Shown in pieces: positions 1 to 54,024 of a DNA stretch of 64,000 nucleotides. Location of the stretch: NCBI GenBank assembly GCA_010405405.1, contig MU004236.1, positions 1,804,070 through 1,868,069 on the forward strand, in the 5' to 3' direction. The notes beneath the pieces are model-generated. The model saw only the letters and a list, made by a program, of their open reading frames with translations. It had not been told where the DNA came from and searched no databases. Position 1 is the first letter of the stretch, and every line of letters starts with the position of its first letter. A program made the position numbers and the translations under genes. This DNA is from Microthyrium microscopicum. Lineage: Eukaryota.

Positions 1-848
1 CCAGGATCCGCCATTTGCTTGATGGTAACATTGTTGTCCGCTCCGAAGATTACTTGGTCAGAGCATCTACCAGACGCATGACAATTTCCGGATAGCAGTG
101 GATCTTTGCTGGTTCCAGTTGTGTATTCCACTGCTATCTTTTCATCATATGCTCCAGTTGTGCTATCAAAAGTCTGCACATCTCCTGGATATGTGCCAGC
201 TTTCACAATGAGCGGGAAATCAACGGAATGGACTCCGCCTAAGGAGTGTCCGCAAACGACAAGTTGTATCATCGCCGCATCTGTCGCGAATCCCATACGT
301 TGGAATTGGTTGCGAAATGTGTCGATCGAGTTTTGAGGTTGTGGTACGCCGGAAGGCCCATGGGCAGTTGCATCAATTCTTCCAGTTCGAATCTGGACAA
401 TGGGTCCACCGCAAGCTCTGACGGCTGTATATACTCCGAGTGATAGCAAATCGGCTATGGATGATCTCGACGACAGGAAAGGCGCAAGATGAACGAGTGT
501 AGAATTGAAGGCTGCTCCCACGTTATCGGCTCCGAAGACTCCAGTGAGCTCGAACATTAGAGAAGCATCCATTCCGCCAATGCCCTTGTTGACTCCAACT
601 GCACTTCCTGGCGAAGCATCATGAAATGCTGATCGGAGCCATTCTGCAGCGGCATTCCGTCCTGCTCCATCAGCGGAAGATCCGCAGGGAGTTACTGGCC
701 CCGAGAAAGCACGAGCGCGATATCCTGTATTAAGAAACATTATATCCTCCAATTCGTCGAAGGCAGATGGCCATGTTGGAGCCGTTGAGGCGCGAAACGG
801 TAACCAGAGAACGCACGAGGCCAGAATCAAAGAGAGTGAGGAAGGCAT
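1..848 (-). CDS. Secreted fungal heme peroxidase-like protein (class II-like, often WSC-fused type); 3' part runs off the window
   Basis: Not in the ORF track. Manual translation from ATG 848: MPSSLSLILASCVLWLPFRASTAPTWPSAFDELEDIMFL...AAEWLRSAFHDA (distal Arg/His)...GGMDASLMFEL...ACGGPIVQIRTGRIDA...VCGHSLGGVH (proximal His). Signal-peptide-like N-terminus. Confidence 0.88.
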   Translation of the reverse strand, partial: MPSSLSLILASCVLWLPFRASTAPTWPSAFDELEDIMFLNTGYRARAFSGPVTPCGSSADGAGRNAAAEWLRSAFHDASPGSAVGVNKGIGGMDASLMFELTGVFGADNVGAAFNSTLVHLAPFLSSRSSIADLLSLGVYTAVRACGGPIVQIRTGRIDATAHGPSGVPQPQNSIDTFRNQFQRMGFATDAAMIQLVVCGHSLGGVHSVDFPLIVKAGTYPGDVQTFDSTTGAYDEKIAVEYTTGTSKDPLLSGNCHASGRCSDQVIFGADNNVTIKQMADP

Positions 849-1691
849 GATTGAACGAGTGACTTGAGTTAGAAGTGAAAACTAAAATTCTTCAGAGAGT
901 GAATATACCCATCATGACTATTTTCTACTAAGAATAGAGATAATCATGAACGAGCGTGCATCACGACAACAGGAGATAAAAATCTGGATTTTGAGTTAAG
1001 TCGGACCAACTCCGTAGTGCGAATTGCTAACATGGCGTGCATGGCTAGAGTATCCGTAGCGCGTGCGACACTGCCTGCGATGGGAACGGCGACTATGTTG
1101 AAATCAGAAACGACATATGGCTATCTCCCCTTAATGCTTCATGTTGGCCAGAACCCATTCGTGGAGTTTTTGAAATTGTCAACTTACAGGGGGGAGATAG
1201 GCGTTGCCAAAAATGGACAATGGACAAGCCGAGAAGAATCCCATGAAGAGTGCAGTAGGTATTTGAGATGTGGTCGTGAACATGGCTTGCGTTGAAGGTG
1301 AGGTTGGACCCAGGGGTTGGCACTAATCGCTAGCGTCACACTAAGCCTTGCTTTTTTTGTGGCCCGGGCATTTCCACTTCACCAACTGGCAACCACCAGG
1401 TTGACCGTACCACGTTCGACATCCGGTCTAAACTTGTAGGTTGCAACCAATATTATTGTGCGCACAAGACCAATCTGGCATCATTTTATTCATGTTCTTG
1501 GAATCCTCCATTCTACCAAGACTTCATGGATCCAACGCTTGACTGGAGAATCAATTATCATCCCTTATCATCCTTGACATTAATAGGTACTCTCGTCGTA
1601 GAGTTCCTCCAGTAGTATCCGTATTATATGTCCACCCAATGAGAACCCGGATGACGCCCTTTCCGTCCAAGTGATAACGAATGGAAAGAGC

Positions 1692-3465
1692 TCAACTGCA
1701 CTTGCCTTGCTGCCACATTTTTACCGATTTCACAATCATTCCGGAATCTGAACCTTTTCCCCAGGTTGGGTACCATTGATCTTTGGCTAGAAACTTGTTA
1801 GGCCTGAGCATGATACTGGGATCGATGAAAGTCTGAAATACCTTTGTAAAAGTCTGCGCCTGCAGTAGTTCCATCATCAACCCAAGGCTTTGATCCAGTA
1901 CCGTCTCTGCCAAGCATTGATTAGTATGTACATAAGTTGCACGTCCGAGGTAGCTGTTGACTTACGGGAAGTACCCATTGCGGCCTCCAACTGCAACATT
2001 GAGGATGAGGAAAAACTTTTGATCAAAGGGGGCATTTTTGTGGCCGGTTTTTGACCAAGGGTCATTCAGCAAGGTCTGGTTCTCCATTGCTCCAGCGAAA
2101 TTGCCAAAATCCCACATGTTCTTCTTGAAGTTCATGTACAGAACGGTTTGCAGTCGATTGTCGATGTATGTGAACAGATAGTCCTCACTCCACTCAAGAC
2201 CATAAGTATGAAACCCTTTTGCGAGGGTGGTCCGGCGGAGCAGTTTCGAGTGGGTTGTGCGCCAGTACGCATCTGTTAGAGCACTGGGTCCTGCCAACTT
2301 GGTCAGTCTAATAGCTCGGCAGGATCGGATGATCGAACGTACCCCAATGAAGAGTACTACTGAACGTATCTTTGCCTCCCTTGGGATAGAGCACATCATT
2401 TCCACGGCTTTCCATAATGTCAATCTCGCCAGATGCTGGCCAAGGACCATATGTATCCGTCTCGGGCATCATCCAGATAGCAGGCCATAACCAATCACCA
2501 GATGGAAGCTTTGCGATGACTTCAACTCTCCCGTAGGTAATAGACTTCTTGGACTTTGTGTTCAAACGCGCAGACCGAACCGAAGGGATAACAGATCCAG
2601 TAGTAGAGTTTGAGGAGGCACTGCAGTCCTCTAGGAGCGCCTTCCCTGTATCACTGGATGTGCAAGAACCATCACCAGATTTGGTAAGATTCAGCGAGTA
2701 TCTGCATATATAAGCATATATTTGGGCAAGGATATTCTGACATAAACACCGCTTACCCGTTGAGGATTTGGGCACTGGTGATGGGAGTCGAATCTGTTGT
2801 CAGGATTGGCACAATGTGCAGACCTTCGCTATCAACATAAGCATTGCGAGGATCGGTTGTCGTCCAGTCAAAAGAACCGGTGCCGAATCCATTGACCTAT
2901 ACATTCATTTAAATCGCAAATCTTGAAATATTGTGGAAAAGCCGTTTACCTGCACTTCGTGGTTCCAGACACTTGTATCAAGCTTGCTAAAGTTGTCCTC
3001 CAAAACTAGACAATACTAGAAGTGATGTTGGTTAGTAGGCTTTCCATGCTCGAGCTTAGGGAAGGCATACGTCGTGTTTTACAGCCCTCTTGTAGCCCAG
3101 ATAGTAGTTGATGTATCCTATAAGTGGGATCGAAAATAGAATAAAAGCCCACACAATCCAATTGCTATAGCGTATTCTGGAGAGACGTTTGTCATCTGTC
3201 CATGGCCGGTCATACCTGACAAAGATTTAGCACAGAATGAAAATGATTAATTCGAAAAGGATAGGAATTCGTACTTGTCAGTCAATAGATATGATTTGAA
3301 TTCGCGCTTGGGTGCCCTTGAGGGTGTCGCGTAGCCTGAGTTAGTACCTGTTGTAAGACCAAGTCGTGATGGAAATGGAGTAAGCTCCAAATCTATGGAG
3401 CGGCGAGGGGAAGTAGCACCACTGCTGTTGTAAGCCCCATCATTTCTTTGGAAGGTTTGATCCAT
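1692..3465 (-). CDS. GH16 beta-1,3-glucanase / glucan-binding-protein-like enzyme with N-terminal membrane anchor (multi-exon)
   Basis: GDWLWPAIWMMP...WPASGEIDIMESRGN (ExDxxE catalytic motif), FHTYGLEW, APFDQKFFLILNVAVGG. Hydrophobic WIVWAFILFSIPLIGYI segment near the N-terminus. ORF pieces are joined by GT-AG introns. Confidence 0.93.
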
Positions 3466-5572
3466 TTCTCGCAATTAGATATTGGCAGGAAATGATTATA
3501 GTTTGGATGTCCAGGACTCAGAACAAGTCTATAACATTCGGATATGCTGGGCTCAATGACAGGATAACTTTCATATTGATTTCAACAATCTATGCCCATT
3601 CGGCGCCTTGACAGGGAAGTTGCAAGAGTGCATCAAACTTGAGGCGTTTACGGTGCACTGCAAGTCGAGTGCGCCTTTTGAGCCACAATATTTGTAGGAT
3701 TCGGTTTCTGTACCAGACTCAAGGGTCGACAGGATCAGGCTGCCAAAACCCAGAGATACCGAAAAACAAATTCTCCAAGTTATTTCTGTAATCAGTATGG
3801 GTACCTGCAGCGTACAGCAAGCAACAACGACTCAGGGGCCCTGGGGAGCTTGTTTGTGATTAGCTGGCAGTTGTTCTAATGCTCGCAGCCTTTCAGGCCG
3901 TTATCTTCAGATAACGATAGAGCGACGGCTTCAAGAAGGATGTGGACATGATACACAGCTTCCATTTCATCCACGGGAAGAACTATGGCGGGCCAAGCAC
4001 GCCTTCATCTCCAGCGCGTTGCTACTGCTGAAACCTCGCCATCAAACGTCGAAGAAGTATCCATCTTGCAATTCTGAAGATGCGAAAGAATTGGCATAAT
4101 CGCTGCCGGTAATTTTGTTGAGAACCGGTGAAGTGACGATCGGGAAGTCCACATGGAATTAATATGGCCCTTCCCAAAGATAGAGTAAGGCTGGAATTCT
4201 TGGAAATGCTGATCGTTTTCTTCAGACAACGTGAAGTAGATGATCCCACCCAACGCATTGAATCTACGAGGGGTGGAACTGCGCTCTCTTCTCGTAGCAG
4301 CAGCACCTACTTGAAAGATTTTCGAGCTTTACAGCAATAACAGGAAACAAAGAGCTGTTGTCTGTCGGCTCTCCCTAAATTGGGCGTCTTCAGTAAAATG
4401 AGATGGCATATTCCGTTGCACCGGGATGACATTTGCCGGCCAAATGATTGGAGTAGACCCAAATACCTGGACTAGGATGGCAAACCTGTTGGTTGCATTC
4501 CGATATCAACTCAAGAGATAAGCGCTTACTTAGGCTTGCGGCGCTTGGCTGGGCGTCATCATATTGTCCTAAACCGTTGAGGTTGGCGGAGAATTGAACC
4601 AGTTGTGGACAAGGGGTCAACTACCGACGGCTCAATGGTGATGTGCTCAGATCGGGCTGAAATCCGCCGCGCACAGTCTATTCCCATCATTCATTATTTG
4701 TTGGTTTTGCTACTGGTGGCTGACTTTAGCGTTCCCGATTCTGGGGAAACCGGGACGGGAGCTTAGATGCACTACGGTAAACTTACTGGGCCTAGACTAG
4801 ACTGGAGCGCCCCCACGTCTCACGATTGCTTTTGAAGCTAAACGCTCCAGCCAATCAAAATGCGGTTTATTCCATTAGGGTGATTCCATCAGGCTGAACT
4901 CTTCCTGCTCCAAAGTTGTAACATTTGGCTGCCAAAGACACGTTTCTGTAGAAGGCTCTCCGGAGCCTCAATACTCTCCTTTTCGTTAAGAAAAGCCATG
5001 ACGGCGACACTTTCGGTAGTGCGCCTGCCTATCACTTCCATCATATCTTGGAGGCGTGGCGTTCTCAGATCGCTCAGCTTGAGTTTATCGTAGTGGCACC
5101 ATACTGCCGCTTCATCAAAGAGGATTCCAGTATCTGCACCGTTTCAATCATTATCTATGTCTTATCGGTGCCAATTTCATCCTAGCTACACGACGCGCTT
5201 AGCTCCTCTGATTTTATTGTGTATTTCTTGCATGTTTGCACTTGTATATTCATAGCCTTCTAGTCGTTCATTCGAACCAATCTCCATCACGAATCATGAG
5301 AACTTAGAGAAGTCCTGATCTCCCAGGATACGTATCTCAGCCTTACTAACCTTTAGCCTTGTACTCCCGTTTAGCGACATCAACCCCTCTGGAAAATCAC
5401 TTCACACACCGGACCATAACACCTTCATTAACACTGTCAAGTTGGTCCGAGTATGCCAAGCCCGTATTGTATTATCACACTCATTTGATACCTTGATAAC
5501 ATTCGCTTCGCCCTACTGCCTCTCATACAAAACAACAGACCAGCTCTTTCGCAACTCTCCTTCCTAGAAACC

Positions 5573-8500
5573 ATGGCTAGTGCACCGATAACTCGGCGTA
5601 ACTCGTCCGACACTGGCTCAAACCATACGTTTACCATCACAGACCCCACTGGGCAGAGTTTATCAAGACCTATTTCAACAGTATCCTCGGAACTAAGATC
5701 TTTCCCGCCGCCGTCAATGGCTCATCTGTCCGGTAACATCTCTCAAGGACGTCGAGGCTCCCTGCCTACTTTGGACAAACGAAATTCAAGTAACAGACTT
5801 ACCATGGCCTCCATCAATGACGAAGCTAGATATCGAGCGGTGAGTTTGAAGATCTCACCCAAATACTTATTGTTCGTGCTGACCAAATCAGATTGCAGAC
5901 TATCTTTACAGCAAAATCTCGGCACAGAATTGGTTCAGTCCATCAGTACCAGGAAGCCCCAGAGGAGTCCTATTGCGCAAGGCCCGGGAAAAGTATGAGA
6001 CGCAACCTCGCACTATCGATTCAATGCTCGGTGCTGCGGTCCTCAAGATGAATGTCGGATGTGCCTTCACCATGTCGACTCAAACCACTTTGGTAATCGG
6101 CTCAACCCTTCAAACATATGAGACAGAGATCTCTCTTCCAGATGGATCTCAAGTTCAGGTCATCGACTCCTTAGCTGACATCGTGGAATCAGGGACTGGA
6201 TTCGTCAAAAAGTTCCAGTATTGTGCATATCTTCGGCAAGAACAATTTCTTCTAGTATGGCACGATGATTTAGAGTGCATCTTGCAAAAGGCAATGGAAA
6301 TCGAAGACAAACTTCTTGGCTTGGTAAGCTCTTCAAAAGCGCCAGATGAGTAAGTAGCTATGACTAACCGATATATAGATCTGGGGATCAACAGCTTCAC
6401 CGTTTGCTCTGAACACCCCTCCATTGTCGAAGCAGAACAGCGCTTATCCATCGACCGTCTACCTACCACTTGACACCAAAGGCCAACCTGGTGTTTCTGA
6501 AACCGAACTTCCGCTCGAAGAAAGCGACGAGGAAGCCGCCACTGCAAGTCAAGAGTCGTTGAGTCGACCCTTGGTCTTCACCAGCTCGATTAACACTGGC
6601 ATGGGAATGTTCTTGATTCTAGTACTCATCCTAGGTCTTGGAGTTTCGTCTCTCGTATTCGAGTCAATGATGGATGGCAATTACATCCGATACGCTCTAA
6701 TCGCCACAATTCCCTTATTCATCATTTTCAGCATGTTCTTCTGTATTGTCTTAGTCTCGGATTTGTTCCGTGCTTTCGGACCCATAACCTCGATGCGCAC
6801 CAACAGTCGTTTCTTCTCTGCGGTTGCACCGAATTACAAAAAGGCTATCGCCACGGGGATGTCACCCCCTCACATCACAATACAGATGCCTGTTTATAAG
6901 GAATCTCTCGATGGCGTTATCATCCCAACACTTCGAAGCTTGAAGAAAGCTATCTCACATTACGAATGTCACGGCGGTACAGCATCAGTGTTCATCAATG
7001 ACGACGGAATGGCCTTCCTAAGTGAGGAAGAGCAAAAAGAGCGAATCAACTTTTATCATGACAACAATGTTGGGTGAGTGTCTCGTGCTGTACCTTACGT
7101 CTTCTAATGCTAATTCACCCTCGTAGCTGGGTTTCAAGGCCTAAACACGGAGAAGACGGTTATCAGCGTAAAGGAAAGTTCAAGAAGGCTTCCAACATGA
7201 ACTTTTGCTTGAACATCTCTTGCCAGGTTGAACAGATACTACGAAAATTCGTTGATCAGAAGATGCAAAGTGAGAAGGCGGAAGCAGCCTTTTTCGATTC
7301 CCGCGAGGAAGAGAGCTTATATCAAGACGCTCTTGAGCAAGTTCTGGAGGGCGATAAAAGAGCTAAAGCAGGTGGCAACATCCGGGTCGGAGAGTTTATT
7401 CTCATCGTTGACTCTGATACCCTAGTAGTAAGTCAAAGGGTTTACCTTTTTAGTTCGCAATATCTAATCCCAGTTCCACAGCCTGAAGATTGCCTCATTT
7501 ATGGTGCCGCCGAGATGTTCTTCTCTCCCGAGGTGGCTATCATTCAGCATGCTACAGGTGTCATGCAGGTTCAACATGATTACTTCGAGAACGGCATCTC
7601 TTTCTTCACAAATCTCATCTACTCTGCCATTCGATTTGCTGTTGGCAATGGCGAGGTAGCGCCTTTTGTGGGCCATAACGCCTTCCTGCGTTGGAAAGGT
7701 ATGAGTTCCTTCCCAAATTCGATCTGTGCGGGCCATAGCTGACAAAAGGTTTGATGTAGCTGTACAATCAGTTGGACGCGTAGAGGAAGGTGGATACATC
7801 GCATATTGGTCTGAAGCCCACGTGTCGGAAGATTTTGACATAGCTTTGCGACTGCAAATCGAAGGTAAATGTGCTTGAATCATAACAATACTGCAATGCT
7901 AACACGAAATCAGGAAGCATCGTCCGCCTAGCAACTTACCAAAACAATGAATTCAAAGAGGGTGTGTCCTTGACCATCTATGACGAACTGAATAGATGGG
8001 AGAAATATGCCTACGGTTGTAACGAGTTGGTGTTCAATCCCATATGGACATGGCTTTGGCGAGGACCTTTTACGAAGCTCTTCATCACTTTTCTCCGATC
8101 TGACATGCACCTGTCCTCTAAAATTACAGTTTTGGGTTACATTTCTTCCTGTAAGAGAACCTCCCCCAATCCTCCAGGCACTAAAGTTCTTCCCTAACAA
8201 TCCTTCCTTTCCAGATTATGCCCTCGCTTCCAGCTTTCCTCTTACCATTCTCAACTACTTCCTGACAGGGTGGATAATAGACGAGCTCGATAAGTTTTAT
8301 CTACCATCTTGGCAGGTATTCCTCTCGGTGGTGTTGGTCTTCAGCTTCAGCGGTAACGTCACTCTTGCAATCATGCGCTATCGGTTGAAGGAGAAAGCTC
8401 TTTGGGCTTCTCTGGTCGAAAACTTCAAATGGGTAAGCATGACCCCTTGTGAACATTTTATCATTCATTCTGCTGTTTTCCTACTTTGTGTTTCTTAACG

Positions 8501-8915
8501 ACAAAGAGTGAAACCGATGGAACCTGAGCATCACGTTGTGAACGTCGACAATATGAATCCCTGCTAACGAAGCTAGATGCCATTCTTTAGCATTTTCTTC
8601 GGAGGTCTCTCTTTCCACCTTAATCTGGCTTTGCTATCCCATATGTTCGGCATTGACATGCAATGGGGAGCCACTCAGAAGGAAGTTGAGAACAGTAACT
8701 TTTTCATGGAAATGCCCAAGATCTGGCAGCGCTTCAAGTGGATGTACGCCATCGTTATCCCGATGTTCGGCTGCATGATTTATCTCGGCTGTTTTGCTCC
8801 TAGAGGATGGGAGATCAATCAGGTCGTTTCGATTGTCCCACTGGCAGTGATGCTGGCTAGTCATGCACTGGTTCCCTTCGTTCTCAACCCCAGCGTTATG
8901 GTTTTCAATTATTAG
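5573..8915 (+). CDS. Membrane-integral GT2 glycosyltransferase (processive polysaccharide-synthase type; multi-exon)
   Basis: Two TM segments, then ITIQMPVYKE, INDDG, FKKASNMN, IVDSD (DxD), VGHNAFLRW, VSEDFD (catalytic base) and ELNRWEKYAYG (QxxRW-equivalent). Several C-terminal TM helices. Canonical introns, e.g. 5840-5898. Confidence 0.92.
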
Positions 8916-9937
8916 TTTTTGACTTGATGTGAGACTGGACCGCTCTGCTCTTGCCAAGGCTTTGTAATGGTATTTAATGGATCACAGCAGGCTATAGATG
9001 GCCGGTATTTGGTGTTAAGACACGATAGAAAGCGTGAGATAACAATGGACTATAATTAAAGGGATTCATATCACAGTCAGAGTGAATTTCCTACCCACAA
9101 TGTTTTGTGATCTTTGAGAACAAAACACAGATAACCAATGAGTCTGAGATTTGGGAGCGACTCATGCTCTTGAGGAAAGGCCGGTGCTTCGACCTTCCCC
9201 TGGCGACTTCTGTCGAATTGGGTTGGATCAGTAATTAGACAGGTTCTCAATCACTATCAGTGGCTTGAATTACCCGAAAGAGGCTTTGATAGGATCAATG
9301 CTTCTTGGAAGACGGCTATACATTCTTCAATCCTCCAAGCCAAGGACCCATGAGCAGATTGATCCTCTTGGTCTAGCCAGTTTACCGGTGACCAAAATAA
9401 ATAGCACGCTCGCATCGAGTAGGATCGGAGTCGTCGTCGTACTTGAAGTTAAAATAAGTTCTTAGACTCGTCGCTCCCTCTGGGCCCAGAGTCATTCTGC
9501 TCTCTTTGATCATTTATGGACAAGGGCAATAGTCCAGACCTATGAAGTAATTGTGGATCTTGTGAACTGTTTAGCCTTACTGAACAAGTCTAGACCTAGA
9601 TTTATCATGTAGTCAAGTAAAAATGCCCACCTTGCTAGGCTTGAACGTGGCGGTAAAGTCACCTTGACCGTCTGCCAAGCAGTTTTGTTTGACCACAACA
9701 CAATAATTTCTGGATCGTGTAGCGAGAGCTGGAAGCAATATTGACGCCTTTCGCAGAGGCTAGGTAGCTAATGGTCAATTTCATTTCTTACTTTTGTTAG
9801 CGTTTCTACTACAATTTATATCGTGGCAGCCCTCAACTCAATATCTCAATTCGCGCTTCTTCATACATAATTTTTGATTACCTTTCCTCACAGCCTCTGA
9901 TCTGTCTATCTAACCTAGTTCATGACATTCTTTTGAC

Positions 9938-11364
9938 ATGCGTGTCTCTACAGTTATCCTATCTGCAATTGCAGTTGTTTCCGCTGGGCCACTGAATCAA
10001 CGAGACAGTGTTCCAGCTTTTCCAGAACATGCCCACAATCGCTGGAGACTTGACGTCAATGAGTGCTGGAGGTCAGTCTGTGAAGATGCCATCTTTGATC
10101 CGAGAAATTAAAGGGCAATTAGCGACCTCGTCGGAAACGTCAGAGCTCTTGAGCACATAGCTGGAGTCGATGGCAACACGTTGACTCCTCAAAACTGTCT
10201 TGATGCATGCGAGGCCCAAGGCTTTAACTTGGGAGGCCTCGAATTCGGTAGAGAGTTAGTATTACCCAAGCTCTAGCGTGCTGGCTAGAACCATCTTTGC
10301 AATGACAATGGTGTACTAATATGCAATTTAGGTGTTTCTGTGGGAACACAATCATGGGCAACAACAGGCCCATTGACATTGGCAATTGCAATATGCCCTG
10401 CGCCAATAGCTCTGAACGCAGTAAGATACACCCCGTTGCAAATAACAGCTTCCGAAGACAATCGACATACTCCGTATCACAACCAGTGGTGGCTGCCAGC
10501 GCATCCACTTTCTACCTTAAGCGGTGTTTTTGATCGAGTGCTGTGGTTGCCACCAATTGCGCTGGAAGTTATAAGTTTAGACGCCTCAGAGACCGTTTGG
10601 TCTTCTCAGAGCGTGTCAGCTCTTAAAGCAGTCTTCAACTAACAAACGACCTTAGTCTGTGGAGGCGCTGGTGCTTTTGATCTCTACATACTAGACAGCT
10701 ATCCTTTCACCGAAGGTCCTGCGGCACCCATCGGTAGCTACAACGGATGGGGAATGACGCAGTGTTGGGAGTGAGTCCCTTCCGAAGTCTTGCTGCTACC
10801 AATCTGCTGACGCTTTTCTCCAGAGACTCGACCTCGGCACGTATTTTATCGGCCAATGCTAACCCATCCATTCCGATTGACCAAATGACTGTCGGCAAGT
10901 GCATAGACAACTGTGATGCACAGGGATATCTCAGCGCCGGCCTTGAGTTTGGAAGGGAGTGCTACTGTGGATCGCCTGTTTACCCGCCAGGAGAATCAAC
11001 AGATCTCGGAGATTGGTGAGATTGATATGGTAGAGGTATCATCAAACCTGAGCTCTCAGGCTGTTGACCACCTTCTACAAAGTCATTCATATTGTTGACC
11101 TCGACTAACCCACCTTCTAGTTCCATGCCATGCCTCGGAGACGGCTCTCTGTATTGCGGTAAGTCACAAGTTCTTCCAGACTGGGACAGAACGATTTTCA
11201 ATTACGTATGCTCGGCGGAGAGTTGCCATTACATTTGTTGGTTTCTATGACATCCCGATCTCGAAACTGCCTGTTGTCCTCATCCAAAAGTACTCTTTGG
11301 TAATTAGATCTAACGAAGTATAGGGGGTCCCGATCGAATGCTTATCTACCACAAGGAGCCATAA
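9938..11364 (+). CDS. Small secreted protein with two WSC carbohydrate-binding domains (multi-exon)
   Basis: MRVSTVILSAIAVVSAGP signal peptide. WSC1: LTPQNCLDACEAQGFNLGGLEFGRE/CFCG...CNMPC...CGG. WSC2: MTVGKCIDNCDAQGYLSAGLEFGRECYCG...MPCLGDGSLYCG/GPDRMLIY. Stop TAA at 11362-11364. Confidence 0.9.
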
Positions 11365-42200: not shown

Positions 42201-45200
42201 TGGAAGCCCACGTGAGACAAGAATAGCAGGCGTTATCGAAGACTAGCAGGATTGGCAGGCACGCAGGGCAAAACAACACTGAACAGGCAGGGGCGTTGGG
42301 GGAAGACTGTGAGAGTGAGACTGCAAGTGGAAGTGGAAGTCGCGCCCTGCCCTGGTCACAGCTGCAGCGTGGGGAAGTCGCGATAAGAGCCCACAGGCCC
42401 ACGTTGTCCAAAAATCTACCAGATCACCCAACTCCATCTCTCTCCTGTAACATCAAAGATGCTGCTGTATAACCAACCCACCCGCACAGCGCACAAGAAA
42501 GCCTCGATGGCCAATTGCAAGTTTGATATTGGCCTTCAAGATTTATTCAAACCACATTCGATGGTAGGAATATAGCATCGAGTGGTTGATAAGGCATTAT
42601 GCGAAGCTGAATATATCAAGGTCACTTATTCAGCATTTCTGCATTTGAAAAAGTAACGCACTTTCTAACAATGGTAATAGTATTCAGTAAATGGTATAAT
42701 CCATGTGTCAGTCCCGCTGCCCTAAATCGCCCGGAATGTGTCATTCCAATTACTTGCATCCCACGCCTCCCAAACAGGGCCAGCGAACCTCAGGAAGCAC
42801 AGCAGCTGTTGAAAGCCCAACTCCAACTTCAGCTATTCTCCAGCCAAACAACAGGTATCACAAGAATACAAGTCGTAAGCACTTCTTATGTTTCTTCTTT
42901 CTCCATGATATTCAAGTCTGTATCGAATAGGGCCGACAAGCGAACTGCAACAGGGCCCAGGCTACCTAGTCTGTTATGCTCACCAAGCCACAGCCGGTGA
43001 TGCCGTTGGCGTGCAGTTGACTTTACTCGGATTCTCATTGGCCAGCAAGTTTAGGACCCCCATTGCTTAAACCTCTTGTTGCACCTGGTTCCCTTAGCTG
43101 TCACCTGCTGGGCCCTGCCCCCCTTCATATCCCTAACTTGAGTAACTTCCCACGGCTTTATCGCTGTGCCTGGTTATATTTCACGATGTTTCTGCCTCCA
43201 TGAATGATGACAGTGCAACCCATATCAAAAACGTTATCTTGGCAATCTGTCGATGCGGGCGCCTTGGCATTTGATCCAGTAGCAACTCGCCTTCTGTCCA
43301 CCATATCGTGAACTTGCTGTATCGGTGAAACAATGCCTATCTGCTCTATCAATGCTCGAGGTCCACTCGAACAAGACTTTGTGACCGGGCGGATTTGGTT
43401 GTGCTTGGGAGCTATGATGTATTCCCCGGCTTATGATAGAGTCTTTTGGACAAACGTGAACTCAACGATCCCCTGCCATCCCGCACACATCGTTGTACTT
43501 GTTGGGGTTGAGCAGGACGTGGGTTGTCAAAACTGTACTTACTACCGTGCCTACAACGCTTTTCCCACTGTTCTTTTTCCACTCTCACGCATTCGCTCGG
43601 CGTTCATTGCAGACCAGGAACCGCCAGGTACATTTTGATATTCCAAGCTTTTTTGCTTATCCTAGTTCGACGCCACCCTGTCCAACAGAGCTTGTTCAGG
43701 TTCTGGTCTGGAGTCTGGCCCCCTTTGACACTTGCCCAGCTGCATTTGTGTCCTTTTTTCCAATCTTGTTCGAGAACCGCCGCGTTTATCCCCAATTATC
43801 CTCAAATTCATATCATCCCTTCACTATCCCTTACAAACCACGATTCCGCGTTGTGGATTAAGCTGCAAACTAGCACCATACCTGCACCAACGCGCTCACA
43901 CTTACCGTAAGAAAGTAGTGAAATAAGTAATATAAAGACTACTTAAGCCTTATAATTTTAGGTAGCGTTATAAGGGGCATTAAAAATATAGGGCTAGTAA
44001 AATAGGTAGTATCTATTTTTAATGCCCCTTTAGTATCTAGATATTATTACTAAGTAAGCTATTTTATCGTTTTTAAAGCTAATCTAAACTAATTTAAGTA
44101 GAATATTATTATTATAATAGTAGGAGTAGATTTTATAATTAGGCTAAAGCTATAGAAAGATATTTATATATAGATTTTATAGTAGAATTCTATATTATTC
44201 TTTATACTAATTAATATCCTTAAAACCTAATTCTTTTAACTCTAAATTAATTAAATATTAGGAATTTAACTATTACTATACTAAAAGTACTAAAGAAAGC
44301 ATACTAAGACTATTAGCCTTTTACTAAATTAGACCTAAATATTATAAGATTAAACTTTAATTAACCTTCTAGGGCTAAATTATATACTAAAAAGTATAAA
44401 TTACTTTTATTAAGGAAATAGTATACTAAATAGGCTAAAATAAAGTCCTAAAATTATTCTTTTATTAAATACTAACTAGAAATAGTTAAGTAAATAATAT
44501 AATAATATATTCTACTTAAATAGGGTAAATAATAGTATAAACTATCTAATAGTATAAAATAGAGTAAATATCTTAATACTTATTATTAATAGCGTTCTAT
44601 AAGATATAGTAATACTACTAAATTCTTTACTAAATCTTATTTAATAGTATTAAGATAATAGAATTAGTAAGTAGCTTTATAGATTACTAATAATTAAGCT
44701 TATTAAGTTTTTAACCCTAAAAAGTACCTTAAGCACTATTTTAGGCTTAAAGATACTATTTATATTTAGTATTATAAATAAAGAAAATAAAAAAAGTTTA
44801 TTAGTACTTATTAATTACTTTATTATATAAATAACGTATAGTAGTATATTTATACTACTAAGATTACTTATAGTAAGTTTCTAAAAGAGTATAAATTAAT
44901 AAAGGGCTAGCTTTAAAGATTCTTATATTACTAAAGGATTAGTTAAAGAAAGGCTACTTATATTACTTAAGAATTATTATTATTATAAGTAGAATAGTAC
45001 TAAGAATTTATTACTTATATAAAGCTTACTATCTATAGAGCTATTAGACTTACTAGTAGTAAAAGAAGAAATATTAATAGTATCTTAGATAAAGAATTAG
45101 AAGTAATAATATAGCTCTATTAAATAGTTAATATAGATAAGATACTAATACCTTTTTATAACTTTAGTAGTTATACTTTAGTAGATATAGGCTTTAAGAC

Positions 45201-45256
45201 TATTACTATTTATACTTATAAAGATAAAGATAAGAAGTATTAGATAATAATAATTC

Positions 45257-45574
45257 TATCACGGACCCCTACAGACTCGCTATAGAAGTATAGGCATCCT
45301 ACTACCTCCTTATTCTCTCTACTCTTATAGTACGCTATAAGAAGACTCTTTGCTAACGAATTGCTAAGTTAACGTAGATAGTGCCTACTCTCTACTATAA
45401 TAGGATAAAGCTAAATAGAGCTAAGAATAAAAAGAAGAGGTAGTCTTATTAAAGAGGAAATAGAGAGGAGTATAAGTAAAGAAGTAGACTTAATCTCTAG
45501 AGAGATTAAGTATTAGTCTTATCTTAATACTAGTTCTTAGAATCTATTTCCCTTACTTTAAACTATCTTTTATA
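45257..45574 (+). repeat. 5' LTR
   Basis: Begins TATCACGGACCCC (probably RIP-mutated TGTCACGG) and ends TTTTATA. Collinear with 53707-54024. Confidence 0.92.
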
Positions 45575-48500
45575 ATTCTAATACTTCTTAACGTACTATA
45601 TAGTAGTAAGCTTAATAGATTCTTATAATAACGAAAGGTATAAGAAACTCTAATAGAGGCTAAAATAGAGGTAAAGATAAAGATAAAGACCTAGATAATA
45701 ACTTAGATAATAACTTAGATAATAACTTAAGTTAATATAATAGCTTACTACTACTAATAGACCTAGAAGCTACTTTAGCTATCCTTTATATAGTAATAGC
45801 TTAAATTAATAAATAAGAATAGGTATACGTAGCTAAGACGTAATAGCTTTATAATAAGATTATAGCCTTATTGTAGGCCTCCTAATAGAATCCTTTTCCT
45901 CCTTCTTAACTAAGAGAACTAAAACCTACTAACCTTATGGTCCTTTAATATAAGACTTAATAAGAACTTATTAACTAAACCGTAAGAGTAGAAAACGCTT
46001 TCTATTTAGTACTCTCTTAATTTACTATATAAGAAAGCTATATTAAATAAGTTAGTTAGTTTATAAGTCCTAACCTATAAACTTAATAGAACCTAAAGAA
46101 GAAGAAAATTAAGCTACTAATTTAGACTTAGGAGAAGTTTATAGAATAGTTCTAATATTAATATGCTTATTTTATTATAGCTAAACTTTTAGTTACTAAG
46201 AAACTTAAAGAAGCTAAGTAGCGTTCTACCTAGACTCTTATAAAGTTTAATGCCTACTTAGACTTACTAAAGACCTAACTTAGTATTAATATAATTTATA
46301 AAGAAGATAAATAATACTTAAAATTCCTTATTAAGCTAACCCTAAAACTATAGAAATAAATTAAATTAATAGAGTATATTCTAATTACTAAATTAGACAT
46401 AGTTAATACTACTAAACGCTTTTAGTAAATTACTTATAAGCGCTTATAAGAAGACTTATTAAGTAACGTTAATCCTTAACCCTTATAATTAAATTATAAT
46501 CTATAAGGTAGCTAAGATAAATAATAGGAACGTAAAAGTTGCGTAGAGTATATACTATTAACTTACCTACTAGTAAGTATAAAGCCTAGAAAAGATAGTA
46601 AGACGTATAAGGGAATTACCTATTATAATTATAACCTATTTAGATATTATATAAATAAGTATAATAAGCCTCTAAGAGGCCCTTAAGCTATCTAAGAGTA
46701 AGGAAATTTTTTAGGATATAGAGGCTAGAGGAGGAACCTAAATACTATCCTTCTCTCATTAGAATTTAGAATTAACCTAAGAAAAGAGTAAGTATTATAA
46801 GGATTAAGAACCCTATCCTTATAATACTAGATTAGATTATAGAGGCATAAATTTAGATAATAGCTAACCTTCTTCTTATTATAGAAGACTAATCTATAAA
46901 CGTCCTTTTAGATACTAGTAGTTAAATTAATATTATTAATAAATAACTTACATAACGCTATAGCCTTAAGAAAGTAACTATAGAAAGTATCTAAGCTATA
47001 GGTTTTACTAATAATATAATAGGAAATAAATATTATAGTACATATTAGCTACGTTTTTATTATAAGAACTCCTTTAGTATCTATAAGGACGTTAAATACT
47101 ATTTCTTCTCTTTTAATTAGACTAAATATACTTACCTTATAGTATAGGGAACCTTCTTATAAGAGAAATATAATATCTTTATCTACTTAGAGCAGAAGAA
47201 GTAGCTATTTAAGAAAGAAAAGCTAAAATATAAGATTATAGACTAAAGTATATTTAAGAAAGGGCTATAAGAATATAGTAAGGTATTTAAACTAACTATA
47301 AAATTTAATAAGTACCTATACTTAAATAGTAGGAAAGTAGAGATTTCTAATATTAGCTTTAAGCTAAGCTTATAGGTAAATATTAATCTAAAGAATAGAC
47401 TACTATAAGAGCTATAGAATTTAGCCTCTTAAGTTAAGGCTAGAAATAAGAAGGAACCTATCCTTAAAGGTATTAAATATACTATTAAGATAACTATAGA
47501 CCCTCCTTTTAGACCTATCTATAACTTATTAGTAATAAAACTTAAGGTACTATAAGAATATCTTAAGTTAGCCCTTATAAAAGGCTAGATCTAGGAATTA
47601 ATTAGCCTAGCTAGAGTACTTATACTCTTTATACTTAAGAAGAATAAAGGATTATAACTTTATATAGATTACTACCTATTTAACGTAGTTACTATTAAGA
47701 ACTATTACTTACTCTCTTTAATAAGCAAAATATTAGATTAACTTAGTAGAGTAGTATACTATACTAAGATAAACCTTAAAAATACTTATACCTAGATACT
47801 TATTAGAGAATAAGATTAATAGAAGATAGCATTCTATACCTAATATAAATACTATAAATACTAAGTTATACCTTTTAGACTTACTAACGCCCTAGCTACG
47901 TTCTAAGCCTATATTTATAAAGTATTAGTAGAACTCTTAGATATTATCTATATTATCTACCTTAATAACATCTTTATCTTCTCTAAAATATATAAGGATT
48001 ATATTTATAACGTACGTATTATATTAAAATACCTACTAGCCGCTAAGCTTTATACTAACTCTAAGAAGTGCTAATTCTTTACTAATAAGGTAGAATTCCT
48101 TAGTTTTATAGTCTTTATAAAAGAAGTAAAAATAGATCTTAGTTAAGTTAAGTTTATTATAAAATAGCTAGAGCCTAAGAGCTATAATAATATATAAGTA
48201 TTTATTAGCTTTATAAATTTCTATCGTAGGTTTATTAAAGGCTACTTAAAGGTAGCAAAACCCTTAACTAACTTGCTTAAGGGTATATAACTTAGAAAGA
48301 AATATAAACCTTTTATCTAGATAAAGAAAGTAATATAAGCATTTTATACGCTTTATATAGCCTTTAATAAAGTTTCTATTCTTATATATTTTAATCTAAA
48401 GAAGAGGATCTACCTTAAAACTAATACGTTCTAATATATTATTATAAATATCCTTTCCTAGCTATAGAAAGATAGCTAATAGTATCCTATTACTTTCTAA

Positions 48501-51500
48501 TTAAGAAAATTAATAGAGGCTAAGATTAACTATTAAACCTATAACTAGGAGCTCTTTACTATTATTAAAGCTATAGAATATTAGTAATATTACCTTAAGG
48601 ATAGTTACTACCCTATTAAGATTCTAACTAACTATAATAACCTAGTAAGATTTATAAAATAGAAGAACTTAAATAAGCGCTAAGCGTACTAGGCAATTAT
48701 ATTAGTAAAGTATAATTTCTATATTAAGTATTAAAGTAGAAAGATAAATCCTATAGATATGTCGTTAAGACGACTTAACTATACTACTATAGAATAGGCT
48801 ATAAATAACTTGCTACCTACTCTTTAAAAGAAGCTAGGACTCCTCTTAAAGAAAGAATAGAAAAAGCTAGTCTTTATAAATAGTCTTAAGTTAATAAAGC
48901 AACTTATTAGTAAGATACTAATAATAAATAAGCATAACTTTATAAATAAGATATTTAATATTAAGTACTACTTAGTACTAAACGTATTAAGAATAGGTAA
49001 AATACCTTATAAGTAAATAAGTAGCTAAGATACTATAAGTAAGGAAAGTAAAGACTTTCTTAGCTCCTAAAAAGTAGTTACTATTCTAGACTACGTCTAT
49101 ATTCTAAGAACTATAATAAGAGAAGCAATATAAGACCTATATATTATAGATAAAGAAGCTCTAAACGCGCTAATTACTTTAGTCTAAGTTACTTAAGATA
49201 GCAATAAGGAACTTAGGCGTATCTAAGAAGTACTTAATACGTAGCTAGAGTCTAAAGAGACCTAATAGCTAAAGAATACTTAGTTAGTCTAAAGAGACTA
49301 CCTCTACTATAAGGGCTAACTATATATACCTTATAAGCCTACCTTAAGAAACGAACTCTTAATAATATACTATAATAACTTACTAACGAAATATCTAAAG
49401 GTTTAAGGCACTATAAAACTACTTTATAAATAGTTTTACTAGCTAAAGATAAAAGAGGACGTATAGGTATATATAAAGACTTGCCTAGTTTACTAAAGAA
49501 TAAAAGTAAGATAATATTAACTTTATAGTAAGTTAAAGTCTCTACCTTAACTAACTTAACTATAATAAGAAATTACTATAGACTTTATTATAGATTTACT
49601 ACCTTATAAACGTAAACTTATAACATTTAACGCTATATTAATAATTATAGATTAGTATACTAAATAAATAAGATATATTAAAACTATAAAAGATATAACT
49701 ACTAAAGAGCTAGTAGAACTTATAAAAAGAAGAGTTTTCTTAGAAAAAAGCCTACTAGTAAGTATTATATTAGATAGAGGATCTATCTTTATAAGTAAAT
49801 TTTAAACTAAATTATACTAGGCAAGAAAGGTAAAACGTAAGCTATCTATAGCCTAGTATCTATAAACTAATAACTAGACTAAGTAGTAAAACTTAGTATT
49901 AAGATATTACTTATAAGTCTTTACTACTAAAAATTAAATAAATTAGTTAAGCCTCCTACCTATAGCATAATAGGTAATAAATACGTCTTATAATAAGATA
50001 CTTAACTATACTCTAAATATAACTAAAATAAGATATAAACTAACCCTTTTAGTAGACCTCCTTATAAACCTTAAGAATAAGCTTAAAGAAGAGAGAAGTA
50101 AGGTAGTAATAGTAAAGTAAAGAGTAGTAAGAATAGAATAAGACTAAGAAAAGATAGTAGAACGCTAAGAAAAAGTAATAAAATACTAAGCTAAATTCTA
50201 TAATAAGAAGTATACCCTAATATTATTCTATATAGAAAATAAGGTCCTATTATTAATAGAGAATATTAAACTTAAACTACTAAGTAAGAAGCTAGCCCTT
50301 TATTATATAGGACTATTTAGTATCTAAGACGTAGTTAAAGAATAAGCCTACTAACTAAACCTCTTAATAGGCTACTAAATTTATAACGTCTTCTATATAT
50401 CTAAACTTAAGCTATATTATTAAAGAGAAGGTTAAGAAGAACTAGAGCTCTTTATAGCTATTAAGCTAAAAGATAAAGAAGAATAGAAGGTAAAAGCTAT
50501 CTTAAATAAAAGGAAATAGAAAGAGAAAGTTAAATACTTTATCTATTAGTAAAGCTATCTCCTAATCTATAACTCTTAAGAATAAGAAGAAGACTATAAG
50601 AATGCATAAGACTTAATTAAGGTTTTTAAAAAAGCTAGTAAACCTAAGTTTATTATTATAAAGAAAAGAAAAAGAAAAGAATAAAACTATAAAGAAAGGC
50701 GTTATAAGAGAGAGAAGATTTTTATATACTTTTTATTTACTATAGAAAAGTAACTAACTAGTAGAATAAAAAATAGAAAACTAAAAACAAAAATAGTAAA
50801 AATTATAGCTAAGTAAACTACTAGTAAGACGTAAACAAAACCTAAATAAAATTAAGGAGTCTTATAAGAGACTAGTAAGCTAATATTATAAAAAAAGGAC
50901 TCTCCTTTATAGAGATAGAAGGAGTAAACTACTAGTAAATATAATAAAAAATAAGAATTTTTTCTAAACGTTATAACTATAGATAGCAAGTTAATAAAAA
51001 GGCTAGTCCTAAAAAATATTAAGACTAGTAATTTACGCCTAAAGAAATAAATAAATATAGTATTTACGTAATTAAAACGCAACCTAATTACTAGACTCTA
51101 ACTCTATATATTAAAACGCTATAACTTTAAAAGTAAGCATTAGATACTATTAGTTACTCTAGAACTATTAAGAAAAGAGTACGTAATAAATATAGCTAAG
51201 GTAATTAGTACGCTATTAGTAGATAAGTAAGTAGATAAAGAAATATTATAGGTTATAGGTACTATAAGCGTAAGAAAAGGATAAAGATAGCTAGGATTAG
51301 TACTAATAGAATTAATACTACTATCTAGATTATAGTAAGTAGTTACTTTACTAATAATATAATGCTACTAAAATTAGTAGAAAAAATAGGCTATTTTATT
51401 AGTATATTAAGCCTAAGCCTAGGTAGCTAAAGAGGAGCTATAGAAGGGTAGTATAGTTTCTTTATTAAACTACTTAGTCTATATACTACTTATCTCCTTA

Positions 51501-53706
51501 TCCTTAACCTCCTTTATAGTAAGTAGATATACTATAAAGCGTAAGGTACTAACGTCTAAAATAAATTTAGGAGGCACATAGGCTCTAAATATAGTAATAT
51601 TCTCTCTATTTTAAACTAAGAGAAATAAGAAGTAGATATAAAAATAATTATCTTATATAGGTAGACTACTAGTAAGTAGAGATAATAGAAAGTTATTAGC
51701 AATAAAACCTAGCTCTTAGTAAGGATTAAGTAGTTTAAAGCTTTCTAGGTAGATTCTTATAAGCTAGATAGGTACTTAAACTTATAACTAAGTATAGGAC
51801 ATAGGTAGAAGATAATTCTAAGAATAATAGTTAGTAGAAGTACAACTTATAAATAAAATATAAAAGAACCTATACTAAGACGCTAGATATTATTAGCTTA
51901 CTTTAGTATATCTCTAATATAACTAAGTATAGCGTAAATATAGAATACTATATCTAAGGCTATAGAATAGCTATAGCCTTCTAAGTAACCCTCTATACAA
52001 CGCTAAGTTATAACGAAAGTATTATAGGTTTATTAATAACGTATTAACTCCTTATTATAGATATAGTACGCATTACTATACTAATAAAACTTAATAAAGG
52101 AACCTAAAGGCGTAATAACTATAATAAAACTTATAGGATTAAGAGATATAAAGTAGATATATAAGTAGATTAGGTTATTTACGATCTTATTAAAGACTAT
52201 AAGTACCTAAACAAAGGTTAATACGTAAGCTATATCTAAATTACTAATAAGATACTTATAATATTATAATAGTACTTTTAATAGGTATAGTAACAGTACT
52301 TAGTAAAGTTATCTTTATAATTATACGTAGTACCTTATAAGATATAGCTATTATTAAGACGATAATAGACTATATTATTAATAATATTCTATAAATATTA
52401 GAGGTAATATAGAAAAAGAAGTAAAGTAAGTATGGCTTAAGAGTAAGATATAATCTAAGTAATATTCTATAAAGGTACAAGTTAGTAAAAGAATTAGGTA
52501 AGTTACTTATAATATACTTACTATAAAGGCCTACTACTAAGTAGTCTAGGCTATAGAACCTAAGTCTATATCTTCTAGCTTATTAAGCAAGTTATCTAAC
52601 TTAGACTCTTTACTATCTAGAAATAATATATAAAGTAGCGCAAGAGTACCTTAGCAAGTAGATTACTTCTTAATTATAAAACGAGTAGTAAATAGCTACA
52701 AAAGCTCTAGTAATAGAGTATCTTTATAATAACGTTTTTTATTAGCCTAAGAGGCGCGCGAAATATAAGTTAGCTACGAAGTAAGGTTAGTAATTAAGTT
52801 AATTATAATAGTATTAAGAGGTACTTAGAGTAAGTAATAAAAGCTATTAATGCTACGTTAGGCTAAATGAGAAATGAATAGCAGATTAGTATTAGTAATA
52901 ATATAGCCTAAGGGTAATAAGACGTAAGGAGTTAATAAGCTTCTCTAAGGCTCTAAGAGAGCTACTTAGTTAATAAGTTAGACTAAGTTATAATTATATA
53001 ACTTAAGCCTTTTAAGGACGCGCTAAGGACTCTACGAAGTATAAAGAGTAGTAGAATGCTAATAAGTTATATACTTAGAAGATTAGCTACTACATTACTA
53101 AGATTATTAGAACTCCTAAAAGGTATAATATATTCCTAAAGAATAATTATCTAGGTTAAGGTTAACTAACTACTTACTCTCCTACGAATTATTATCGTTA
53201 ATAAAGTTATTATTACTAAAGGAATTAATGTTAATAAAGTCCTAATAGGACGAACTATTACTATATAAACTACTAAAATAATAATAGGAAGATATTATAA
53301 GAAAATAATTAAAATACTATTAGAACGTACGTTAAAAGGCTAAAAGTATTAAAAATAGGCAAAAAGAGTATAAATAGAATACGAAAAGGGTATAAATTAA
53401 ATTAAGAACTCTAAAGAAACATAGTTTTTAAAACTTTTAAAATTTTAGATAGGTAATATGCTTATAAATTACTTATAAGAAGAAGAGGTTATAGTATTAA
53501 GGAGATAGAGTATTATAGTCTTAAAATATTTTAGTATTATATATATACGCAATACCTTTATAATAAATAGAGTTATTATTACCTATATAATAAGTACTAT
53601 AGTAACTCTAAAGGTAAGAATACTATAAGTTAAGACTATACTTACTAAAAAAGGAAAGCATAATAGCTAAGTTATTAAGAGTAACTTCCTTTAAAAGAGA
53701 AGGCTT

Positions 53707-54024
53707 TATTATAGACTCCTATAGACTTGCTATAAAGGTATAAGCATTCTACTACCTCTTTGCTTTCTCTACTCTTATAGTACGCTATAGGAAGGCTCTT
53801 TACTAATAAACTACTAAATTAACGTAGATAGTACTTACCCTTTACTATAATAGGACGAAGCTAAATAGAGCTAAAGATAAGAAGGAGAGGTAGCCTTACT
53901 AAAGAGGAGATAGAGAGGAGTATAAGTAAAGGAGTAGACTTAATCTTTAGAAAGATTAAGTATTAGTCTTATCTTAATACTAGTTCTTAGAATCTATTTT
54001 CCTTGCTTTAAACTATTTTTTATA
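53707..54024 (+). repeat. 3' LTR
   Basis: Begins TATTATAGACTCC. Same length as the 5' LTR, differing mostly by C/T and G/A transitions. Followed by the TSD AATTC. Confidence 0.92.

Follow-up and report, generated by a model that had tools for sequence, protein, structure and literature searches.

What does a fungus make where it encodes a membrane-bound polysaccharide synthase and a membrane-anchored glucanase side by side, and do the two belong together? The question is raised by a stretch of 64,000 nucleotides from Microthyrium microscopicum (G000:C7:1804070-1868069, hereafter the window, to whose positions our coordinates refer), which opens with four genes linked to the cell wall: a heme peroxidase, a GH16 glucanase, a predicted GT2 synthase with a DUF7928 domain, and a secreted protein with two WSC domains. 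A preliminary description had joined all four into one candidate beta-glucan cluster. Comparison of gene neighborhoods and trees leads us to a smaller unit: the GT2 and GH16 genes make up a conserved two-gene core, co-evolving in filamentous ascomycetes, and the peroxidase and the two-WSC protein are local neighbors outside it. The pair suggests that one way of making a cell-wall or matrix polysaccharide has been overlooked. Some fungal wall and matrix glucans still lack an assigned synthase, and a GH16 of predictable specificity would provide both a first clue to the GT2 product and a matched analytic enzyme.

The core is most directly visible in the neighborhoods of other GT2 genes. Our metagenome set consists of the best 80 of 521 confirmed GT2 loci, 30 of which have at least 4.5 kb of upstream flank. 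A GH16 gene lies 1.1-6.2 kb upstream of the GT2 in 25 of these 30 loci (21 of 26 after merging near-identical ones), and wherever a locus holds a GH16, it stands upstream (26/26). With three such GH16 genes in the 37 Mb of the host genome, chance linkage would by simple arithmetic stay below 0.001 per locus. Named species were taken as the 15 besides the host that are common to both top-120 lists (counted by eye), 13 of which carry both genes on equally sized contigs. Eleven of the 15 contribute 12 pairs in which GT2 and GH16 are within 1-2 tags or accessions of each other; locus tags established two of these pairs and accession look-ups the other ten, which had been preselected for equal-sized contigs. 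Periconia digitata and Microdochium nivale were left out of the look-up, and the Aspergillus tanneri records stem from two assemblies. The species with the pair span three classes, namely Dothideomycetes, Eurotiomycetes, and Sordariomycetes. The synteny that the preliminary description had called for is thus found for these two genes. Their arrangement is flexible, with 11 divergent and 11 tandem cases among the 22 loci used for trees, so that we reject the need for a shared divergent promoter.

Trees of the two proteins, built from 35 linked pairs, agree as well (r 0.94, an uncorrected value that the species’ shared history inflates). Of 32 splits, 15 occur in both, with a random expectation of 0.18 on average and 3 at most, and the congruence proposed as a check in the preliminary description is therefore present. 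A deep 13/22 split is supported in both trees (100/100); as the host carries genes of either type, it is a division between paralogues. Both trees also place Thozetella with Tothia (99/97). On these trees, the paralogue split and the Thozetella-Tothia grouping exceed what shared species ancestry gives. The three GT2 and three GH16 copies of the host sort one to one: the window GT2 groups with the C2:143k copy (100), its GH16 neighbor groups with the C4 copy (91), and the remaining GT2 and GH16 both fall in the other clade. Of the seven GT2 copies that lack a GH16 neighbor, four sit in one subclade (L070, L077, L092, G000:C2:153k), which suggests one loss of linkage. The other two host GT2 paralogues (L005-L007, C2:136000-156100) stand on either side of a chitin synthase and a beta-lactamase-like gene, close to NoxR-like and copper-chaperone-like genes (named from translations), a context that does not recur in the metagenome loci.

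The features of the locus, from gene models with GT..AG introns, are as follows.

3465..1692, minus strand: type II membrane GH16, 8 exons, about 461 aa, PF00722; core member
2427-2410, minus strand: GH16 catalytic motif EIDIME (sequence motif)
3110..3297, minus strand: GH16 juxtamembrane motif F-K-S-Y-x-L ... Y-x-x-P-W (split by intron 1) and single transmembrane helix (3166-3110), from alignment and hydropathy
3466..5572, no strand: intergenic region between divergent starts, without conserved open reading frame (ORF) or convincing shared motif
5573..8915, plus strand: DUF7928 plus GT2, predicted integral-membrane processive synthase, 9 exons, 936 aa, by Pfam; core member
5892..6323, plus strand: DUF7928 domain, ahead of the first membrane helix, from model and conservation
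7000-7008, 7185-7196, and 7410-7418, plus strand: GT2 motifs DDG, KASN, and DSD, from alignment
7825-7836, 7985-7999, and 8664-8681, plus strand: GT2 motifs SEDF, ELNRW, and WGATQK (gating-loop-like), from alignment
848..<1, minus strand: heme peroxidase, 5' part, PF00141 (E 2.6e-19), secreted
9938..11364, plus strand: secreted two-WSC protein, 7 exons, 246 aa, signal-peptide-like start

Models, Pfam matches, and covering contigs place all four genes where the preliminary description had seen them, and its details also hold: the divergent GT2 and membrane-anchored GH16 (2,107 nt from start to start), the D, DxD, ED, and QxxRW-like motifs of the GT2 (DDG, DSD, SEDF, and ELNRW), and the signal-peptide-like start of the two-WSC protein. 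Support for introns and transcripts comes from the contigs of one public run, which we guess to be RNA; its depth cannot rank genes, and uncovered parts are uninformative. Run contigs skip 5 of 7 introns in the GH16 gene, 2 of 8 in the GT2 gene, and 2 of 6 in the two-WSC gene, and a single contig covers the peroxidase part. The run also shifts the fifth GH16 acceptor by 18 nt, which lengthens the protein from 455 to 461 aa and matches the database model (P0123). The database model of the GT2 begins 48 codons downstream of the start of our 936-aa model. Between the two genes, run contigs also cover 4092-4599, and four named genomes have one accession between GT2 and GH16. A k-mer and blastn comparison of 22 intergenic regions revealed no convincing shared motif and no hidden ORF.

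What kind of enzymes are these? The GH16 has an 80-residue N-terminus followed by one hydrophobic helix (aa 81-99) and no cleavable signal. Its E-x-D-x-x-E motif is intact in all 39 homologues, and the juxtamembrane motif is kept in all 38 aligned proteins, with an invariant Trp. All 27 PDB sequence matches are GH16 enzymes, mostly labeled laminarinase or beta-1,3-glucanase, with laminarinases as the closest solved structures. Outside fungi, the clusters nearest to it consist of arthropod beta-1,3-glucan-binding proteins. Together with the WPA..WxM..WP pattern of GH16_3/4, the EXDXXE motif and the kinship with animal beta-1,3-glucanases and binding proteins agree with what defines GH16_4 (EXDXXE, WPA..WXX..WPX). 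By sequence, the protein is thus probably laminarinase- or beta-glucan-binding-protein-like and a member of this subfamily. Membership in GH16_2 (Kre6/Skn1) was rejected, as the SKN1/KRE6 Pfam domain is absent and P0123 matches only PF00722 at E <= 0.001. This membrane GH16 group is also represented in the yeast Clavispora lusitaniae (P0202).

The GT2 contains PF25550 (DUF7928, E 7.5e-40) followed by PF13632 (Glyco_trans_2_3, E 3.1e-56). All 36 fungal homologues keep the key residues of DDG, KASN, DSD, GHN, SEDF, ExxRW, and WGATxK unchanged; the motifs come in the order typical of processive GT2 enzymes and are presumably equivalent to those of BcsA. The Q of QxxRW is replaced by E, and the Trp of ExxRW is kept in none of 17 distant homologues. 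A PDB sequence search with the GT2 profile gave nothing below E 0.3. The predicted model (predicted template modeling score 0.75) places a GT-A domain between transmembrane helices, as in BcsA, which is its best structural match (Z 21.9, root-mean-square deviation (rmsd) 4.3, 423 residues aligned); CesA, FKS, hyaluronan synthase, and CslF6 come next (Z 16-17). By modeled fold and motifs, the GT2 is a predicted processive synthase, which would build its polymer from a uridine diphosphate (UDP)–sugar. P0001 (the GT2) matches only PF13632 and PF25550, with no GT48 domain. Identity with a chitin synthase or FKS (GT48) was hence rejected, in line with the non-FKS enzyme of the preliminary description; the QRRRW genes of the host genome sit elsewhere. 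Among the Cps1/ZtGT2 hyaluronan-synthase-like GT2 enzymes, CPS-1 is described with roughly 510 aa and two C-terminal helices (PMC6796803); compared with this description, the window GT2 differs in size and architecture.

The N-terminal DUF7928 domain, modeled alone with high confidence (predicted local distance difference test 95.6), has a class II aldolase/adducin fold. It superposes on fuculose-1-phosphate aldolase over 137 of 144 residues (Z 12.4, rmsd 2.6), and all 15 chains with Z >= 8 are aldolase-II-type by title. The domain has one His in its 144 residues, and no His is among the near-invariant positions in 55 sequences. Class II aldolase enzymes carry conserved zinc-binding histidines, and an enzyme of this class was therefore rejected. 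Because the aldolase fold comes without a conserved histidine, we infer from the model a non-catalytic assembly or sensing domain. We found no paper on DUF7928 and no functional study of this GT2 family in the literature searched.

The GT2 family extends to Basidiomycota and diatoms (Atlas clusters), giant-virus contigs, and bacteria. Viral contigs (L099-L106), several labeled as giant-virus metagenome-assembled genomes, encode the family without DUF7928, some beside other sugar-modifying genes. Bacterial homologues (L107-L165) lie inside proteins of 1,700-7,000 residues, fused to a Ser/Thr kinase and DUF5050 in Clostridia, or adjoin HlyD, outer-membrane efflux, or GH94 genes. These non-fungal neighbors, from kinase fusions to GH94, are heterogeneous and indicate no product.

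How does the pair compare with known systems? Bacterial BcsA (with BcsB) and BcsZ are closest in logic, in that a synthase gene adjoins a hydrolase gene. The structural match to BcsA covers residues of about 250-885 (Z 19.6-21.9), and the motif order is alike. On the other hand, the window GT2 is only 13-15% identical to BcsA, has ExxRW, shows no PilZ match, and begins with the aldolase-fold domain, and its partner is a membrane-anchored GH16 instead of the GH8 BcsZ. In fungi, the Aspergillus galactosaminogalactan (GAG) cluster likewise combines a synthase with hydrolases. It relies on a GT4 synthase, an epimerase, and a deacetylase, types not seen as recurring neighbors of the window GT2. Kre6 and Skn1 have a type II anchor, and Kre6 is not known to have a linked synthase gene. 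These GH16_2 proteins share with the window GH16 the lack of a secretion signal (PMC6827312) and a link to glucan synthesis, whereas Pfam, motif, and nearest relatives put the window enzyme in another subfamily. Aspergillus Tft1/CelA is, like the window GT2, a fungal GT2 membrane synthase, and Tft1 makes (1,3;1,4)-glucan in K. phaffii (bioRxiv 10.64898/2026.09.17.752320). Identity with it was rejected on motif and Pfam grounds: in the window GT2, the switch motif of Tft1 is absent (score 17), as are QxxRW and Cellulose_synt similarity. A separate host gene on contig C3 has a Tft1-like switch motif (score 35), QRTRW, and a Cellulose_synt match, with no detectable similarity to the window GT2. 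Clusters of a synthase and a hydrolase are already known; the candidate novelties are this pair, its optional oxidase (discussed below), and the DUF7928 fold. We found none of the three described in the literature searched, which included few subscription journals and no supplements, so an earlier mention is possible. The available parts of PMC4059230, PMC7388969, PMC13509883, PMC10282164, PMC4632067, PMC4309609, PMC8777122, and PMC13390370 do not mention the pair.

Published expression and genetics give some indication of where the pair may work. NCU04167 of Neurospora crassa is a member of the window GT2 family. A review (PMC6796803) lists it apart from cps-1, places it with NCU09906 among the GT2 genes up-regulated in perithecia, and counts NCU04168 and NCU09904 among the GH16 genes; its available part is silent on the adjacency of NCU04167 and NCU04168. 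NCU09906 is also induced by phosphate starvation (10.1101/2025.04.07.647663), and NCU09906/NCU09904 are probably a second candidate pair. In Epichloe stroma, EfM3.080040 (GT2, +5.0) and EfM3.080050 (GH16, +3.7) rise together with a WSC AA5 gene (+13.2; PMC6921078, Table 6), a co-induction read from consecutive gene numbers of candidate orthologues. NCU04167/NCU04168 make the pair tractable, as GH16 deletion strains exist and the K. phaffii assay of Tft1 is directly applicable.

With slightly better than even confidence, we favor a reading in which the GT2 extrudes a 1,3-linked beta-glucan that the anchored GH16 trims, releases, or grafts in developmental tissue. The two genes would form an old polysaccharide module of filamentous ascomycetes. 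The GT2 would polymerize UDP-glucose into a beta-glucan containing 1,3-links and pass it through the membrane, and the GH16, sharing that membrane and exposing its catalytic domain to the outside, would cut or transfer the emerging chain, like BcsZ on cellulose. The conserved juxtamembrane motif may hypothetically dock the GH16 on the GT2. With less assurance, we suggest that the module could be active in multicellular or sexual tissue and not in the bulk hyphal wall. A bolder version strikes us as rather improbable: a second, FKS-independent beta-glucan machine, in which GT2 and GH16 form a complex through the juxtamembrane motif, the aldolase-fold domain assembles or regulates it, and WSC oxidase and peroxidase oxidize or cross-link the matrix of fruiting body or stroma.

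Several observations weigh against the favored reading, in addition to the inflated tree correlation and the provisional Epichloe orthology mentioned above. In 5 of 26 non-redundant loci, no GH16 stands beside the GT2; two of the three host GT2 copies have no neighboring GH16, the window pair being the only one still adjacent; and Cryomyces minteri has a pair with distant tags. This GH16 type is nearby in none of 67 wider-family loci (8 viral and 59 prokaryote; 790 ORFs). Fold likeness is silent on linkage, since Z falls at 16-22 for BcsA, CesA, hyaluronan synthase, FKS, and CslF6 alike, and we infer both the activity and the product of the GT2. The predicted GH16 specificity draws on animal and bacterial relatives, since the available part of PMC6827312 reports GH16_4 activity only for animal enzymes and contains no characterized fungal GH16_4. 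Finally, N. crassa GH16 deletions, including NCU04168 and NCU09904, have wild-type morphology (PMC6796803).

The main rival reading is that the pair is coupled but the GH16 opens the FKS beta-1,3-glucan wall or grafts onto it, with the GT2 making another linkage or sugar, an alternative that we find unlikely, though well worth weighing. Synteny and trees are just as compatible with it, and the ExxRW motif and its Trp loss in distant homologues set the GT2 far from characterized glucan synthases. Hydrolases and transglycosylases are, moreover, mixed within GH16 subfamilies (PMC6827312). That each GT2 paralogue has a co-duplicating GH16 nevertheless speaks more for a matched substrate than for an enzyme of the wall at large. 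The clustered hydrolases of bcs and GAG type also act on the polymer of their own cluster. That the GT2 supplies the missing synthase of beta-1,6-glucan, or produces an exopolysaccharide with 1,3/1,6 branching, alongside a Kre6-like type II GH16 partner, strikes us as very doubtful. Baker’s yeast makes beta-1,6-glucan and is not known to have this GT2 family. The single N-terminal anchor without cleavable signal does resemble GH16_2/Kre6 (PMC6827312), but the missing SKN1/KRE6 match, the GH16_3/4 pattern, and the laminarinases as nearest relatives speak for another group.

Less probable still is a conserved four-gene unit of peroxidase, GH16, GT2, and two-WSC protein. All four genes are covered by contigs of one run, and 3 of the 13 WSC-bearing loci of the genome (in our grouping) lie within ~21 kb around the pair, so that the local arrangement is unlikely to be random. 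Elsewhere in fungi, however, neither gene recurs: among 25 loci with 6 kb of flank, none has a peroxidase domain upstream of the GT2, and among 25 with 2.5 kb, none has a WSC gene on the downstream side, where small WSC genes split by introns could be missed. The four-gene cluster of the preliminary description consequently falls; its expectation that GT2 orthologues would adjoin GH16 and WSC genes in other genomes survives for the former and fails for a downstream WSC gene. Least probable of all, in our estimate, is a passively conserved gene order without functional coupling. Some GT2 and GH16 copies are indeed separated, yet no further flanking gene recurs beyond a handful of 43 long loci, and the pair survives changes of orientation and spans three classes.

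If the flanking genes are outside the GT2-GH16 core, what are they doing there? The peroxidase extends ~2.4 kb beyond the window edge, to about G000:C7:1801695, and bears four C-terminal WSC domains there (WSC matches at C7:1801725-1802879, from translation). Such a fusion of peroxidase and WSC domains corresponds to what we take to be a Hybrid B heme peroxidase. Farther out, 4-10 kb left of the window, lies a WSC-repeat copper radical oxidase of the glyoxal-oxidase-like type on the minus strand (L009:244-5837, or G000:C7:about 1794313-1799906), with up to seven WSC matches upstream of its catalytic part, which could belong to more than one gene. It is 66% identical to the oxidase beside the sister GH16 on C4. 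Besides C4, such an oxidase recurs in Malbranchea (tags 8180, 8181, 8182) and beside the A. tanneri GT2 (012005, 012006), and it lies beyond the GH16 in 2 of 16 metagenome loci with room to see it. The records listed for Massariosphaeria, Periconia macrospinosa, and Kalmusia place it on separate contigs. Judged by these neighborhoods, the WSC copper radical oxidase is an optional, partly conserved third member of the proposed module. Since such oxidases require activation by a peroxidase (PMC9770985), the WSC peroxidase is probably its partner. One model of Talaromyces atroroseus joins the oxidase to a peroxidase of 55% identity, and keeps the order seen here. The adjacency of a secreted peroxidase and a copper radical oxidase is shared with the tandem peroxidase-alcohol oxidase (AA5_2) of Colletotrichum and Magnaporthe, where these peroxidases occur solely with AlcOx (PMC9770985); the window-side proteins differ in that both bear WSC domains, their genes are co-directional, and the oxidase is glyoxal-oxidase-like.

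Far from these genes, the window contains a 12-kb block (44001-56000) of 20-26% G+C against a background of 46-50%. It has no ORF of 200 aa and looks like repeats decayed by repeat-induced point mutation (RIP).

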